64,000 bases of DNA from Isurus oxyrinchus (Eukaryota), in the NCBI GenBank assembly GCA_026770705.1, contig JANJGN010000026.1, forward strand, positions 36,518,001 through 36,582,000. Direction: 5' to 3'. Shown here piece after piece: positions 11,934 through 56,003 of this stretch. Each line of letters starts with the position of its first letter. The stretch's first letter is position 1. A model generated the notes under the pieces. The model made no database searches and was not told the origin of the DNA. It saw only the letters and a program-made list of their open reading frames with translations. Position numbers and translations under genes: made by a program.

Positions 11934-12412
11934 ATGGGAATCCTCCTTGTTTTCACCCTGTGTGTCTGTATACCCCGTGAGTACCGATCAAACAAACCGA
12001 CATGTTGTGGGTTTAATATAAAGCTGCTCGAGTCCATCCCAATTACAGACAATGTCTGCGGGTTTAACCCCGCTCCGTGGTTCGGCTCTGATGGTCCATT
12101 ACACTCTCTCTGTTTAATTTCCAGGCTCTTTCAGTCAGTCAGTGACACAGACCCCAGCAGCGGTGACCAGGAAGGAGTGTCAGTCTCTCACCATCACCTG
12201 TGTTTATTATGGTTATTATTATTTACAAAATGAACATTTCTTCAAACAAACCCAGACCGGGACAGAGTGGGAACGGATCTCCAGCGGGGAGAGATTTGTT
12301 GTGTCGGTGAATAAAGCAGGAAAGACATTTTCACTGGAAATTCGGGATGTGAGAGTTGAAGACACCGCCAACTATTACTGTAAAGCTCAGTACAGGTACA
12401 ACATTGGTTAAT
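11934..12412 (+). CDS. NAR-TCR V gene segment (IgNAR-like V); leader exon 11934-11976, V exon 12125-12412
   Basis: Leader MGILLVFTLCVCIP ends at a GT donor with a phase-1 AG acceptor. The V reads QSVTQTPAAVTRKECQSLTITC..FFKQTQTGTEWERISSGERFVVSVNKAGKTFSLEIRDVRVEDTANYYCKA. This is an IgNAR-type framework lacking CDR2, with an extra FR1 Cys. Confidence 0.92.
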
Positions 12413-12440
12413 CACAGAGGAAAAGGCCTGAACAAATAGC
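12413..12440 (+). other. RSS of the NAR-TCR V, best read as 12-spacer
   Basis: CACAGAG-GAAAAGGCCTGA(12)-ACAAATAGC, a 7/9 match to ACAAAAACC. Confidence 0.65.
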
Positions 12441-12754: not shown

Positions 12755-12793
12755 GGTTCTTGTGCCGGGGAGACTGAGAGCAGTGTTACTGTG
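12755..12793 (-). other. 23-RSS of the NAR-TCR J
   Basis: GGTTCTTGT(12755-12763)-23 bp-TACTGTG(12787-12793). Confidence 0.88.
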
Positions 12794-12846
12794 GTGGAAA
12801 TGTGATTCTGTGGATGGATCCGGTACGATGTTGACTGTCATAGCCG
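12794..12846 (+). CDS. NAR-TCR J gene segment
   Basis: WKCDSVDGSGTMLTVIA carries the IgNAR-type DGxGT motif and ends at a phase-1 G|GTAAGT donor. Confidence 0.9.
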
Positions 12847-13499
12847 GTAAGTGACTCCAGCCACCCTCCCCCTCACACCTGTTGCGGCCTGTCCTAGCTA
12901 ATGTTCACCCGCTGCTTTTTATTGTGATCAGTGTCAGTTCAGTCCCACGAAAAGGAAAACAGATGGTTTTCATAAGGAAACCTCTCTGTTGGCTTTTTCG
13001 ATTTGGGGGCAGAATATTATTCAGGAGCCAGGTCGAATGTCTAGGTGAAACTATGTGTGAGATCTGTCGGACTAGGCGGTCAACGGGATCAGGGTGGGTG
13101 GAGGATGGAGTGTGGGGACGTGGGGGACGGGATTTTAGGTTTGGAGGAGCATGAGGGTTCGCTGCATCTGAACCATTATTAGTTTCACTGGTACATCGGG
13201 GGCCATCAATCCCTCTGATTCACAATTCTAATCATTTGTAAGTTTGGAATTGCTGACATTTATCTCTTTTGAATGTAGATTTTTGAGATACTGGATTGCT
13301 TTAATTTATCTGTATCTGTGATTTCTGCAAATTAAAACAACACAGAGCAGTGGGAGAGTGAGGATGATGCACTAAACTGCTAGAAGGGAACAGGAACATA
13401 AGAGAACAATAATCATCGAAATCAAGAGAAAGGTTGGATGATTTCTGGGGGCCGTTCAAAATTCTTCCTGGCACGAGGGTGGGGGGTGAGGTTTATGGA

Positions 13500-15460: not shown

Positions 15461-15766
15461 ATTCCAGTTCCATTGTATCCCAGAATCCGCCTGTCCAAAC
15501 CTCTGCTGTGGGTGACACCGTTACTTTAAGCTGTGAGTATTCAGGTGTCTGTCAGTACACAGTACACTGGTACCATCAGTCCCCAGGACAGGCTCCGGAT
15601 TATTTGCTTCAGAGACATGCTTCAGGAGAAGAGGATAAAGAAAACACTGTTGGGGGGAGAAGTTCTGCTTCTATCGATCCTGCCGAGAAAATCAGCCGGT
15701 TAAATATCTCCAAACTACAACTGAGCGATTCCGCTGGGTATTACTGTGCACTGAGTCAGCGCACAG
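15461..15766 (+). CDS. Leaderless supporting TCR Vdelta of the NAR-TCR cassette
   Basis: The acceptor TTTTCTCCTGCAG is in phase with the J donor. The open exon reads SSSIVSQNPP..TVTLSCEYSGVCQYTVHWYHQSPGQAP..SDSAGYYCALSQRT, with a CDR1 Cys. No leader exon was seen upstream. Confidence 0.92.
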
Positions 15767-15915
15767 CACAGTGATACAGAGCACGGAGGGTGCCATACAA
15801 AAACCTGAACATGGAGGGATTAGACACAGTGATAAAGAACAGGGAGAGAGCTGTACAAAACCTGAACATGGTGGGATTACAGACATACAATGACACAGAG
15901 TGCAGGGATATTGGG
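15767..15915 (+). other. Tandem 23-RSS array (two complete units and one degenerate)
   Basis: CACAGTG(15767)-23-ACAAAAACC, then CACAGTG(15825)-23-ACAAAACCT, then a degenerate TACAATG at 15886. The linker TGAACATGG(A/T)GGGATTA is repeated. Confidence 0.9.
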
Positions 15916-40977: not shown

Positions 40978-43431
40978 ATGATGCACGGGCCAGCGAAAGG
41001 CCTCTTCTTCGCTATTTGCTATCCCATTCTCGCTGTTATTGGTGTGCCTGGTAAGTGATGAATCCCGAATAAATGTTTGTGTTGATGTAAATCTCCAGAT
41101 GTTTAGTCTCTTCTCTTCAGAGTCTGCATTTAAGGGAGTTCAATCGAATTATATCGGTGCTCTGTATGTTATTATACTGTGTTATGTTGGATTATAGCTC
41201 TACTTGCGCTTGCATTATGGGGCATTGCAAAATATTATTCAATTTATTATGCTGCATATTTAGAGAAATGCTTTTTATTAGAATGCTGAGATATGAATTG
41301 TAATGTTTGCCTTTGCATAGACATTAACCTGTTATATTGTTGAACATTGTGTTTTATTCTAATCCAGTCAAATGCAATCTAGCATTTTGAGTATTGAGCG
41401 AGATCATTGCATATCATCATGTACTGACCTGCATTTTCGTGCGCTGGTCCTATCAATATATCAGAAAATTAATTGTTACAGTGCAATTATTCAATTAAAT
41501 GAATTGTAATATAAAATACTTTCAGTGATAATACACATATACAATGCAACCTCTAGAAGTATGTAAAATTTACAGTATGATTTCCCACTGGGCAGTCCTA
41601 ATTGTTAATCTGGCTTTGGGATTTAATTATGGAATCGTTTGAAAAAGGGGAGTGAGGTCTCAAGATTTTCAATGTGCTTTGCTTTGTGCTGGTAGGTCTT
41701 ATAAATTTTGGATAGTTATATTTTTAATCATCAGCGGGATGTGGGTGTCCGTGACAAGATCAACATTTATTGCTCTTCACTAGTTTCCACTTCAGAAAGT
41801 GGGGTTGCATTTGCTTCTTCAGCCGATCCTGTATGTATGGCACGGATGTTTCACAGGAACTTCACCTGATTAATTTCATACTGAACGGCGCAAGGGGATA
41901 TTTGACCAAAGGGTACTCACAGAGTTTACTTCTAAGGAACGTTCTAAAGAGGAAAGAAGAGCTGGAGCCGTAGAGGGAGGGGTTTTCAGAGATCAGAGCG
42001 TCGGCAGCTAAACGCTGAACCTCTACAAATGAAAAGATTAATGCCAGGGGCACGAAACTGCAGAATTGGAAGCATATGTTGGATCTCAGACAGTTGCAGT
42101 GTGTTACAGGAATTGAAGAAGGCGAGATAACAGAAGAAGTTAAAAATAGACGGACGAGGTTATTAAAACAGAGACGTTGCCATTCAGGGGGGCATTGGGC
42201 TGATGGATGGGCGGAACTTTTGCCGTTTTATGCCAATAAGGGCAGCGGTAGCAAATGTTTCAGATAATCTTAAATTGGATAGTTAGGCCTGAAGATTGCC
42301 TCAGTGTACAGAGAGTGAAGTTTGGAGTGAGAATGAGTGGATTGCCTCATGTTTTGACTAATAGTTAATCCAGCATTGGATGTCAGACAATTACCAAAGA
42401 CTTCACAGTAGTCGCAGCCTGGAGGTGGCAAAATGACGGGTAAGGAGGGTTTAATTAACAGATTCGATGAGGCAGTATCTCATGTTTGGAATCCGCTTGG
42501 TAACATCTCTACCCCTTTATCCCTCACAGCCAACTTGCTAGCGATCGTAATTCTATCTCGAGGGTGCTGCGGGCTCTCCCGCTGCACCACCTACTACCTG
42601 GTGGCAATCGCGGTGAGCGATTTCCTGGTCATCATCACCGCCGGCATCCTCAACCGGATAGGCCGCATCTACTTTCAGGACAGTGTCCTCTCCACCACTC
42701 CCGCATGCGCACTCAGCAATGTGCTGGTCTTTACCATCCGGGATGTGTCAGTCTGGCTTACGGTCGCCTTCACCATTGACCGTTTTGTGGCCATCTGCTG
42801 TCAGAGCCTGAAGAGCAGATATTGCACTGAGAAAACTGCGTTGCTGGTTATAGGACTGGTCAGCGCCCTGAGCTGCGTGAGGAATGCCCCTTTCTACTTC
42901 AGCTACCAGCCTTTGTACATCCTGGACGGAGTGTCCTGGTTCTGTGCCATTAAGCCTGCCTTTTATATTCTTACCGCCTGGCATGCCTTTGATTGGCTGG
43001 ACCGCATCTTAACCCCCTTTCTCCCATTCCTCCTCATTCTGCTTCTCAATGCCCTGACCGTAAGGCACATTCTAATGGCCAGCAGAGCCCGCAGGAGGCT
43101 CCGGGGCACCGAGAGTCACGGAGACCAGGAAATCATCAATCGCAAGCGGTCCATTGTCCTGCTTTTTGCCATCTCGCTCAGCTTCCTCCTCCTGTGGGCC
43201 ATCTTTGTTGCACATTTCCTCTATGTGCGGATTACAGGCGAGGGCTATCTCACCAGCCTGAATTTTAATGATCCAGATTACATCGTTCAGGAGACCACCA
43301 ACATGTTCCAGTTGTTCAGTTCCTGCAACAATGTCTTCATCTATGCCGTGACCCAGAACAAGTTCCGAGAACAGCTGAAGGAAGTCATGATGTGTCCCTT
43401 CACCACGGTCACTGTTTGCTTTAAATGGTAA
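40978..43431 (+). CDS. Two-exon class A GPCR of the GPR139/142-like type (exon 1 40978-41050, exon 2 42530-43431; about 324 aa)
   Basis: Exon 1 MMHGPAKGLFFAICYPILAVIGVP|gtaagt splices in phase to ANLLAIVILSRG. The product has seven hydrophobic segments, a TM2 AVSD, a TM3 DRFVAIC and a TM7 NVFIY, with no stops. Confidence 0.92.
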
Positions 43432-52515: not shown

Positions 52516-53014
52516 CGCCTCGTCTTCCACACTCAGGCCGCTTATATTGAGATAACCGGACTGTTTAGACTTGTCAGCAGCCGCCAGATATCGTCCTGAG
52601 ATTTCATCTTTTCTCAGTCCTACTACTTTGGTAATTATCCAGCTTGGAGGCTGTGCCGATTTATGCCGATACCATTGCATAATGTCTATAGCCTGGTCTG
52701 TATATTCGCAATCTAACTGCACCAAACCCCCTTCTGACACGGTTAACATCACTGGGGTCTGAGTTACTGGATCGGCACACAGTCCGCCTGTGAAAATAGA
52801 GAAACAGAAGAGTATACGGTTAAAGAGGATCCATCTAAACATCTAAATAACTGCGCAAATTCCCATGAACAAAGCTGTTCATAATATGTATACATCTGCT
52901 CGTTAATCCTATTAATTGCTAGTGCAAACCCTTTGCCTCAATCTGCTAATATGTTTTGATTAACATAATCCAGTACTTACTGCCCCAGACAGCCGCCAGT
53001 ATAATCAGAAACAT
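52516..53014 (-). pseudogene. TCR V with intact leader, truncated before YYC and RSS
   Basis: Leader MFLIILAAVWG (53014-52981, GT donor). The exon from 52787 reads GLCADPVTQTP..QLDC..WYRH..LSVEDEA, then switches abruptly to GPCR-intron-like sequence. Confidence 0.92.
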
Positions 53015-53096
53015 GTCTGTCCGAATCTCTTTCAGAGAATGTGAATGGAATGAGCCAGAGATTGAAGAGGAGAGAGGGAACACCGGATTTGTTCCG

Positions 53097-53192
53097 CTCA
53101 TTGTTCCACCCACACACTGCAGGGGGCCAGGCCCGTTGTGATCTCATTGTTCCACCCACACACTGCAGGGAGCCAGGCCCGTTGTGATCTCA
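53097..53192. repeat. 46-bp tandem duplication in a V promoter/5' UTR
   Basis: CTCATTGTTCCACCCACACACTGCAGGG..GGCCCGTTGTGAT at 53097 and 53143. Confidence 0.9.
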
Positions 53193-53260
53193 CTCAGGAA
53201 ACCATCTCTATTGGTCTTGACGTTGGCCACACGTGACTTTCTAATTAGCATGCTTGGGCT

Positions 53261-53276: not shown

Positions 53277-54328
53277 TGGATTCTGTTTTCATCCGGTTAA
53301 GGGGGCCATTGATTGGATTTGGGGTTTATTGATTTACATATCAAAATATGAATGTCATTTTTTTCCCAGAAGTCTAAATGGGAGCTGATCAGAATCAATC
53401 TTTTTTTCGTTGGTGTTTATGCAATATTTAAATAATATTAAACGTTTATAACTCGCTGTTTAGGGATCAGGGAACCACCATTTACATTGAATGTCAAGAT
53501 ATTGGAGGTAATACACCAGAATGGTACCAGGAATGACGGCCTCCAATAATGGACGAAGGAAATTGGTAATACTATTCCTATGTCAAAGAATTAAAGGAAG
53601 TACTTAATTGAAGTACTCAAAATTATGAGAGGTTTGATGAACCAGATCGTGTACTGTTGTTTCCACTGGGAGAAAATTCGATAATCCAAGTACCCAAGTT
53701 TAAGAGAAAAGAGACAGGGAAAGTTTATATTCACGTATCACACTACCATGTGTTCAAATCTGAATTGTACTGTCTAAAGGGATGGCAAAATATTCATTAG
53801 AAACTTAGAGAAGAAAAGTATATGTAAGTTAGAAGAAAATTACATGCAACTTCAAAGAAGAAACAAACTGCCGACCTTCGTGGAAAATGTGGGGTTGAAA
53901 GATGAATTGATAACTCTTCCCATGAGGCATAGACATGATAGGCCGAATTGCCTCAATTTCTTGCTCTAAGATTCGATGATTCTAGTTCCTTCATGTCCCT
54001 CCCACTTTACTTGTTGTCAGTCACTTGAACAGTCAGCAGGTGAGGGATAGTCATTGACCTTGAAGGTTCAACAGTCACTATTTCCGCTCCATCAGTTCCG
54101 AGTGCAGATGAGAGTCACCGCACACTTCACAATATTGAGTCTACGGTATCCCCTCCCACAGTTTCCGTTTGCTGCTCTCGCTCTGACTCGAGTTTGTTAT
54201 TGGAGAAATTGCTGCCGCTGGTCCACTCCTGTCATTGGTTGGATCAGTAGTGCAGTGGGGTGGGGATTTGTATTTCTGCTCCGACAAAAGCCTCCTCGCA
54301 CTGCAGAGTTACAGACTCAGGAACTGTC

Positions 54329-54872
54329 ATGGGGAACCGTTTCGCTTTTTCCTCATCATTATGTCACTTCTCAGTAAATATTTCCTTCCCCATGAATAAT
54401 CCGTTTCTTCTAATTACTGTAACACAGATGTTGTTCTTGACAAAGAAATATTGATGGTGATGGTGATGATTATGTTGATCAATATGAGGCTGATACTGAT
54501 TGTTGTTATTGCTATTGTCTTATGTTAGACTGGAGCCACCAAGACATAGCGGAACTGCCGGTTGCTGCAATAACGTTTGACGAGAAAAGTAATATTACAG
54601 TAGCTTGCACATTGAAAACAAGCACTTCTAACCGTTATGTGTACTGGTACAGTCAGCGCCCCGAGCAGCCTCCACAGTACATGCTTTATATTCTGGGAGG
54701 GAAACCATTCAGAAATAAGGACATCAGTGATCGGTTTTCAGCAATGTTTAATGAAACTGTAAAGATTACCGAACTCATGATCAGTAACATCCTGATCTCT
54801 GACAGCGCGGTATATTTCTGTGCGATGGACCCCACACTGCTGCAGAGATATAGCGGATACCGTACAAAAACC
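54329..54872 (+). pseudogene. TCR V with an open V exon (54529-54832) but an out-of-phase leader
   Basis: The V reads ITVACTLK..YVYWYSQRPEQPPQY..SDSAVYFCAMDP. RSS is CACACTG(54833)-24-ACAAAAACC. The leader exon is 45 nt (phase 0) but the acceptor needs phase 1. Confidence 0.85.
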
Positions 54873-54911: not shown

Positions 54912-55682
54912 CTCAAACCGAAAAACAGGAGCAATAATCCCGCCTCCACAGTGAGAAAAGTTGCAAAAAAACACAGCCTTCTACAAGAATAAAAAATGAC
55001 AATTTCAACAGTAATATTAATTTGCGATTTCAAATTACACATGTAATAACATTAACATTACGGACCAATTTGTGGTGCCTTACGTCACTTCTTTCTCTTT
55101 GGATGCCTTTCCTGCCGATTTGATCCTTCTCCCGCCCTGTCTCCACGCGTTATCCATATTTTCAGACATCTCCTTCATCGGACTTTCGTTTAAAGGTTTC
55201 AAACCTTTGATACTTCGTTGAACATTAACTCAGAACTATGCTAACCCAGCCGTCCATAGGCTCTGTCCCAGTTTTAAACGGTTTAGCCAATGAAAACTCA
55301 ATTTATTATTGAATTATTTACTAATGCTGACACACGTGTTCACCCTGCTCGCCTCCAATTTGGAATAAATCTGAAAGAACAGCAGTTATTATCGAGAGGC
55401 AGAGATATATCACTTTCGAAGGGGACATTATTATTGAATTCAGCTCCTTACAAATGGGTCCGATGTGTGACAACATTTACTGCTCTAGCGCCGCCCACAC
55501 ATTCCGTTTGCTGCCGTCGCTCTGACCCGCCTTGCCTCCCCTGTTATTGAGCAGTTTGATGCCGCTGCTCTCTGTTTGGCATTGTTTGGATCAGCAGTTC
55601 AGCGGGACGGGGCTCACACAGCACAAACAAATTTTGATCAACACAGTTTAACCGCTTGATATTTCGTTCCTCTACCTTGAAG

Positions 55683-56003
55683 GCAGACTATGCGCACATC
55701 CAGTAACTGAGGCACCGGTTGCAATAACGGTGTCAGAAGGGGGTTCGTTGCAGTTAGACTGTGAATATAGAGAACGGAATATGTACTACATGCAATGGTA
55801 TCGGCAGCAGACGGCACAGCCTGCAAACTGGATTATTACCAATATCATAGCACTGAAGAAAGATGAAATTTCAGGACGATATCTGGCGGCTGCTGACCAG
55901 TCTCAAAAGAACGGTTACCTCAAAATCAGCCAACTGAGTGTGGAGGACGAGGCGGTTTATTACTGTGCAGTGAGGCACAGAGTTAGAATCTTGTAAAACA
56001 ACC
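55683..56003 (+). pseudogene. Leaderless open TCR V exon with a 12-bp-spacer RSS
   Basis: The acceptor ends at 55682. The exon reads RLCAHPVTEAP..QLDC..WYRQ..LSVEDEAVYYCAVR with no stops. RSS is CACAGAG(55976)-TTAGAATCTTGT-AAAACAACC. No leader exon is present. Confidence 0.88.

Follow-up and report, generated by a model that had tools for sequence, protein, structure and literature searches.

The V exon at 55683–55975 of the window, by which is meant the whole 64,000-nucleotide stretch of Isurus oxyrinchus DNA that was analysed, is best explained as a TCR alpha/delta V pseudogene that results from two germline deletions and was copied along with a duplicating NAR-TCR cassette (probability about 0.85). 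The larger deletion, of 1.7 kb, fused what remained of the promoter of an already dead leader upstream with the 3' part of the intron belonging to the next V. The smaller one took 11 bp from the 23-bp spacer of the RSS, leaving a spacer of 12 bp. The chimeric V and its immediate upstream neighbour are composed of the following elements:

54329–54872 (+): upstream neighbour V of another family, with frameshifted leader, open exon and 24-bp spacer
55490–55612 (+): what is left of the promoter of a dead V54-family leader, truncated 60 nt ahead of where the ATG of that leader used to be; colinear with L061/L062
55613–55615 (+): junction of the 1.7-kb deletion, with CTC common to both sides (2–3 bp microhomology)
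55613–55682 (+): 3' remainder of the leader intron of the chimeric V, ending with an AAG acceptor
55683–55975 (+): leaderless V exon of TCR alpha/delta type, open here and with no CDR1 cysteine; V-set match with Cys/Trp/Cys
55976–56003 (+): degenerate RSS composed of CACAGAG, a 12-bp spacer (11 bp shorter than in the paralogs) and AAAACAACC

The V exon and its genomic setting

The exon matches the Pfam V-set model with an E-value of 5.6e-18, has Cys, Trp and Cys in place and is preceded by an AAG acceptor (55680–55682; CAG in most paralogs), in agreement with the sequence-only reading, which had described exon and acceptor as intact. An open V-set exon with the three residues is found in this copy and in two others, i.e. 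in three of the six copies. The CDR1 reads RERNMYY and has no cysteine. The best database protein match is a catshark V-set fragment (60%; one match of two candidates, without context), matches in the PDB were confined to generic V domains of antibodies, and a tree of 22 rows does not settle the sister lineage of the chimeric V. Its alpha/delta assignment rests on the context provided by the window, a cartilaginous-fish TCR alpha/delta region in which V-set exons followed by 23-spacer RSSs occur together with a V and a DGSGT J of NAR-TCR type and with a supporting-type V that has the CDR1 Cys. The ends of the window repeat at 58.5 kb with about 98–99% identity and define a tandem amplicon.

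A genome search, in which 40 of 242 candidates were scored and 30 loci fetched, identified among the scored candidates at least six full-length chimeric copies and at least 24 paralogs that match from 55613 onward only. As judged from the 10 paralogs that were read (of 24), each has a promoter of its own and a leader in phase 1. The family members at 690 and 59173, to which the RSS had been compared in the sequence-only reading, do have the 23-bp family spacer, but both are multiply stopped pseudogenes with decayed nonamers. The V genes neighbouring the chimeric V are likewise broken. The family of the upstream neighbour (54833–54872; L031–L058) combines a 24-bp spacer with a consensus nonamer in seven distinct open exons. 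An inverted paralog of the chimeric V family, found on the minus strand at 52516–53239, ends before the second cysteine and adjoins a repeat that recurs at 42302–43429.

The large deletion and the promoter relic

The region 55490–55612 had been described as another family's promoter, resembling that of the V at 54150, which runs into the intron of a gene that lost its leader. The resemblance (70% match between 55491–55612 and 54152–54265) and the leader deletion both stand, but the element is not the 54150 promoter: it is a separate, dead paralogous one. Its best matches precede paralogous V genes by 1.7 kb and have the same orientation as these genes. The L061 and L062 cassettes are colinear with window 52.5–55.6 kb at 87%, the relic itself being colinear and 13–15% different, then carry extra bases (1,714 bp in L061, 1,718 bp in L062), and resume at 55613. 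Long-range promoter capture from the 54150 V was rejected, the relic being a separate adjacent element in these undeleted cassettes.

The missing piece comprises a leader with an already mutated splice donor, an insert, and the promoter, leader and 5' intron of the V itself. A 1.7-kb deletion that took out the dead upstream leader together with these V-proper elements explains the chimera. None of the 24 non-chimeric promoter copies read by eye has both an ATG and a GT donor in the leader. The CT/CTC shared at the junction is consistent with a microhomology-mediated deletion.

The RSS and the loss of 11 bp

The RSS of the chimeric V has the heptamer CACAGAG (55976–55982) and the nonamer AAAACAACC (55995–56003); the intact paralog RSS is CACAGCG-23-ACAAAAACC. 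A 23-bp spacer and ACAAAAACC precede the common flank in 13 of the 24 paralog loci, giving a net loss of exactly 11 bp and bearing out the 12-bp spacer that had been read from the sequence. That this loss is real follows from the RSS tally of the 24 paralogs: CAC-23-ACAAAAACC in 12, a 23-bp spacer with mutated heptamer in one, a 22-bp spacer in one, heptamer lost in three and nonamer lost in seven. RSS deletions are present at 11 of the 24 loci and have struck this V family at least three other times. The CAC start, whose retention had also been noted, and the exact 12-bp spacer are found in all six chimeric copies. The other spacer registers of the chimeric V (11, 13, 22–24) have no nonamer within the scan thresholds.

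AGA/TAGA repeats spaced by 11 bp are found in the spacer of several paralogs and would explain the exact 23-to-12 change; an alternative placement of the 11-bp deletion, without microhomology, scores equally. Both deletions would have proceeded via short microhomology, at CT/CTC in the large junction and at the AGA/TAGA repeats in the spacer. A germline RAG scar was considered unlikely, the coding end and CAC being intact and the large deletion lying far from any RSS. Note that in three paralog loci (L012, L017, L019) the heptamer is gone and a spacer-internal CACAGCT is left 10 bp from an intact nonamer. The 23-bp spacer of the V family contains a second heptamer-like word.

Copies, germline status and age

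Short-read contigs bridge the large junction in three of the four runs examined (X1, X5 and X18), which shows that the deletion is no assembly artefact. Contigs of X1, which may be the assembly's own sample, cross it with no mismatches, while X5 (22 differences in about 652 bases) and X18 carry a second species label (organism B), diverged by ~3.4%. Contigs of X1, X19 and X15 likewise read through the 12-bp spacer. The contig sequences place both deletions before the ~3.4% split, in common with the second species label. The six copies in this genome diverge from each other by 0.85–1.53%, and the same sequence comparison dates their amplification after both deletions. Since the deletion predates amplification, the invariant spacer reflects inheritance and is no evidence of selection.

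Stops or variable spacers in other copies had been named as observations that would speak against a used segment. The 12-bp spacer proved invariant, but three of the six copies have lesions (a +1 frameshift, Cys23Tyr and a 12-bp FR3 deletion), bearing in mind that the L004 frameshift could be an assembly error and that the two small-contig copies (C301, C2529) could be alleles. The organism-B copy, assigned as orthologue by near identity and matching depth, has a 4-bp deletion at 55930 in three of four runs (X5, X18 and X6; it is absent from X15, 65% of which was read). At window position 55981, the 12-spacer copy in organism-B run X15 has the consensus heptamer CACAGTG; X5 and X6 have CACAGAG. 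Near-identical NAR V-J units number 13 among 40 candidates scored for them, versus six chimeric V copies, which suggests that the V is a passenger of the amplification.

Tests of selection on the exon

Changes on the stem leading to the chimeric copies, whose length is 0.08, amount to four synonymous and 11 nonsynonymous, under a crude majority-rule polarisation, and match the neutral ratio. The exon differs from L061/L062 by 13–15%, as much as the flanks do. Among the six copies there are nine synonymous variants, where the spectrum of the flanks predicts 2.9, and five nonsynonymous ones, where it predicts 7.6 (P=0.005; P about 0.02 for the synonymous excess over four exons). Nonsynonymous variants are not significantly depleted (P=0.23), seven of the nine synonymous variants sit in the three broken copies, and the three neighbouring V exons used as controls show no synonymous excess. 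Simulated survival of an open frame, under an assumed indel rate, is 54–70% at a distance of 0.017, 28–48% at 0.035 and 9–26% at 0.065; the frame is open in three of the six copies. The synonymous excess, the open frames and the consensus heptamer in one organism-B run leave a past or rare function a small probability.

Potential NAR-TCR partners and recombination geometry

Two further features of the window are relevant to the pairing of the chimeric V:

12755–12850 (+): NAR-TCR J (DGSGT) that has a 23-spacer RSS and is the closest such J to the chimeric V copy of the preceding tandem unit
15461–15805 (+): NAR-TCR supporting-type V with CDR1 Cys and consensus 23-RSS, given for comparison

The CDR1 of the supporting-type V (at 15463) contains GVCQY. 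Its 23-RSS is tandemly duplicated (15767–15863).

J-alpha segments carry 12-RSSs. TCR D segments have a 5' 12-RSS, as described in platypus (PMC3457774), and the normal partners would therefore be excluded for a V with a 12-RSS. The sequence-only reading had proposed a NAR-TCR J as permitted partner instead. The geometry holds, since the 23-spacer RSS of this J faces upstream and a 12-RSS V could pair with it by deletion, but the implied function finds no support, given the missing leader, the disfavoured RSS bases and the lesions. Nor does the J of the next repeat unit, in which it had been predicted, lie about 15 kb away: this unit is interrupted after window position 66451 by ~28 kb of unrelated sequence, which puts the next NAR-TCR J 43 kb downstream of this copy. 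The distance of about 15 kb applies to the other five copies. The replacing sequence spans about 36,584,450–36,613,000 of C26, beyond the window end. On the upstream side, too, 43 kb separate the chimeric V from the closest DGSGT J of the window, whose own supporting V lies in between.

All NAR units that were read contain, ~380 bp from the J, a NAR V that is itself equipped with a 12-spacer RSS, and this local V would probably outcompete the chimeric V. The NAR-TCR V exons (window 12140–12440; L070–L089) terminate in a D-like tail of variable sequence, after which comes a 12-spacer RSS whose nonamers are degenerate. Judged by this arrangement, they look like germline-joined V-D. In 13 near-identical NAR units the tail ends with TAA just before the heptamer.

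The preferences against which the RSS was assessed derive from mammalian RAG assays. A pyrimidine is preferred more than tenfold at heptamer position 6 (PMC9723617), where the chimeric V has A, a disfavoured purine (T in one organism-B run). A top-strand C at nonamer position 5 is predicted to clash with RAG1 R391, while a change at position 2 may be compensated (PMC12711392). The chimeric V has C at nonamer position 5, so that with heptamer A6 it lacks the bases that characterise active 12-RSSs. The distinct open-V RSSs of the fetched loci (n=16, many related) have C2 in 16/16, A5 in 15/16 and C5 in 0/16. The three nonamer variants of the chimeric copies are not in the top-1000 table of PMC12711392, a strict cut that is no proof of inactivity. 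Note that the NAR-TCR 12-RSSs of the amplicon also read CACAGAG. The RSS of the chimeric V would have drifted after the spacer deletion, making it a weak RAG substrate at best.

Capacity to encode a protein

The own promoter and in-frame leader exon of the chimeric V are deleted. An in-frame TAA stop precedes the acceptor, so that there is no in-frame start. The exon requires phase 1, but the one upstream leader that was checked, that of the neighbour V, has phase 0 in five copies and phase 2 in the sixth, and thus fits in none of them. At 55559 the chimera has an ATG of its own whose frame agrees with that of the exon. A cryptic leader starting there was rejected: it is blocked by the TAA before the acceptor, and all five following GT sites are without donor consensus. 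Any join of the chimeric V would yield no surface receptor, as no signal peptide can be added. The organism-A runs guessed to be RNA (n=4, tissue unspecified) have next to no matching words, and X21 gave 0 contigs, which speaks neither for nor against expression.

Alternative explanations

The 12-RSS could be a weak but real RAG substrate whose occasional joins to the NAR-TCR J delete the intervening NAR V and generate non-productive alleles, a by-product without protein. This is unlikely. The CAC and exact 12-bp spacer of all six copies, the presence, about 15 kb downstream of five of them, of a 23-RSS J oriented for joining by deletion, and reports that cryptic nonamers can support recombination (PMC12711392; PMC9723617) argue for it, but it has to accommodate the disfavoured bases at heptamer position 6 and nonamer position 5, the competing 12-RSS of the NAR V ~380 bp from the J, and a truncated promoter that probably leaves accessibility low. 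An artefact of assembly or consensus in a highly repetitive locus has a negligible probability: tandem repetition at 58.5 kb and the existence of unplaced contigs, possibly haplotigs, would favour such errors, but short-read contigs bridge both the junction (X1 with 0 mismatches; X5 and X18 of organism B) and the spacer (X1, X19 and X15).

A functional novelty, in which a conventional TCR V joins the NAR-TCR J, obtains a leader via alternative splicing and replaces the IgNAR-like domain of a two-V delta chain, is very improbable. The exon open in half of the copies, the synonymous excess, the consensus heptamer of one organism-B run and the in-frame, chimera-specific ATG at 55559 point in its direction, but this ATG meets the TAA before the acceptor and is followed by five GT sites without donor consensus, the phase of the upstream leader does not fit, three of four organism-B runs show a frameshifted copy, and a conventional V probably does not have the unpaired-domain features of the NAR V. 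The same low probability is given to its boldest form, according to which the microhomology deletion flipped the V from 23-RSS to 12-RSS and at least one haplotype, e.g. that of organism B with the consensus heptamer, is rearranged and, with a leader taken from elsewhere, expressed as a delta chain of two V domains carrying a conventional TCR V at its tip. The pseudogene formed by two germline deletions is thus the preferred reading.

Significance and comparison with known systems

As a pseudogene the segment matters little by itself, and it warns annotators that leaderless shark TCR V exons are not all NAR-TCR supporting V segments. The repeat of 3–4 bp spaced by 11 bp in the spacer makes a 23-to-12 change possible in one step, which would be a plausible natural route to differences in RSS polarity between loci. 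If the segment were used, it would represent new V-J partnerships arising via a spacer change and RSS polarity switching in progress. The literature consulted (titles and abstract openings) holds no paper on this segment or on a 23-to-12 switch in shark TCR V genes; the key papers of the field, supplements included, may qualify both this novelty and what has been published on how NAR-TCR RSSs are laid out.

The chimeric V resembles the TCR alpha/delta V pseudogenes of birth-and-death clusters in its open or nearly open exon, lost leader, damaged RSS and broken neighbours. It differs from them in a spacer deletion that falls exactly on the other legal length, 12. A related case is the potential pseudogene "Vc" of sterlet IgL, described as having no leader exon and a disrupted RSS (PMC5985310). 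NAR-TCR supporting V-delta segments are leaderless and have a CDR1 cysteine (PMC1845163; for NAR-TCR background see PMC12227049, PMC5931798 and PMC12205992). The chimeric V shares with them the missing leader and its location in a NAR-TCR-bearing amplicon, but has no CDR1 cysteine, for which reason it is not considered a supporting V-delta; in addition, its spacer is 12 rather than the 23 that joining to D-delta requires, no NAR J lies immediately upstream, and its family does have leaders, the absence here being due to a deletion that could be mapped. Its 12-bp spacer is also reminiscent of Ig light chains, in which kappa-type V12/J23 and lambda-type V23/J12 RSS polarities are distinguished (PMC5985310), the V carrying the 12-bp spacer in the kappa type. 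In the light-chain loci, however, V and J are matched and functional, whereas here one decayed V lineage alone changed.
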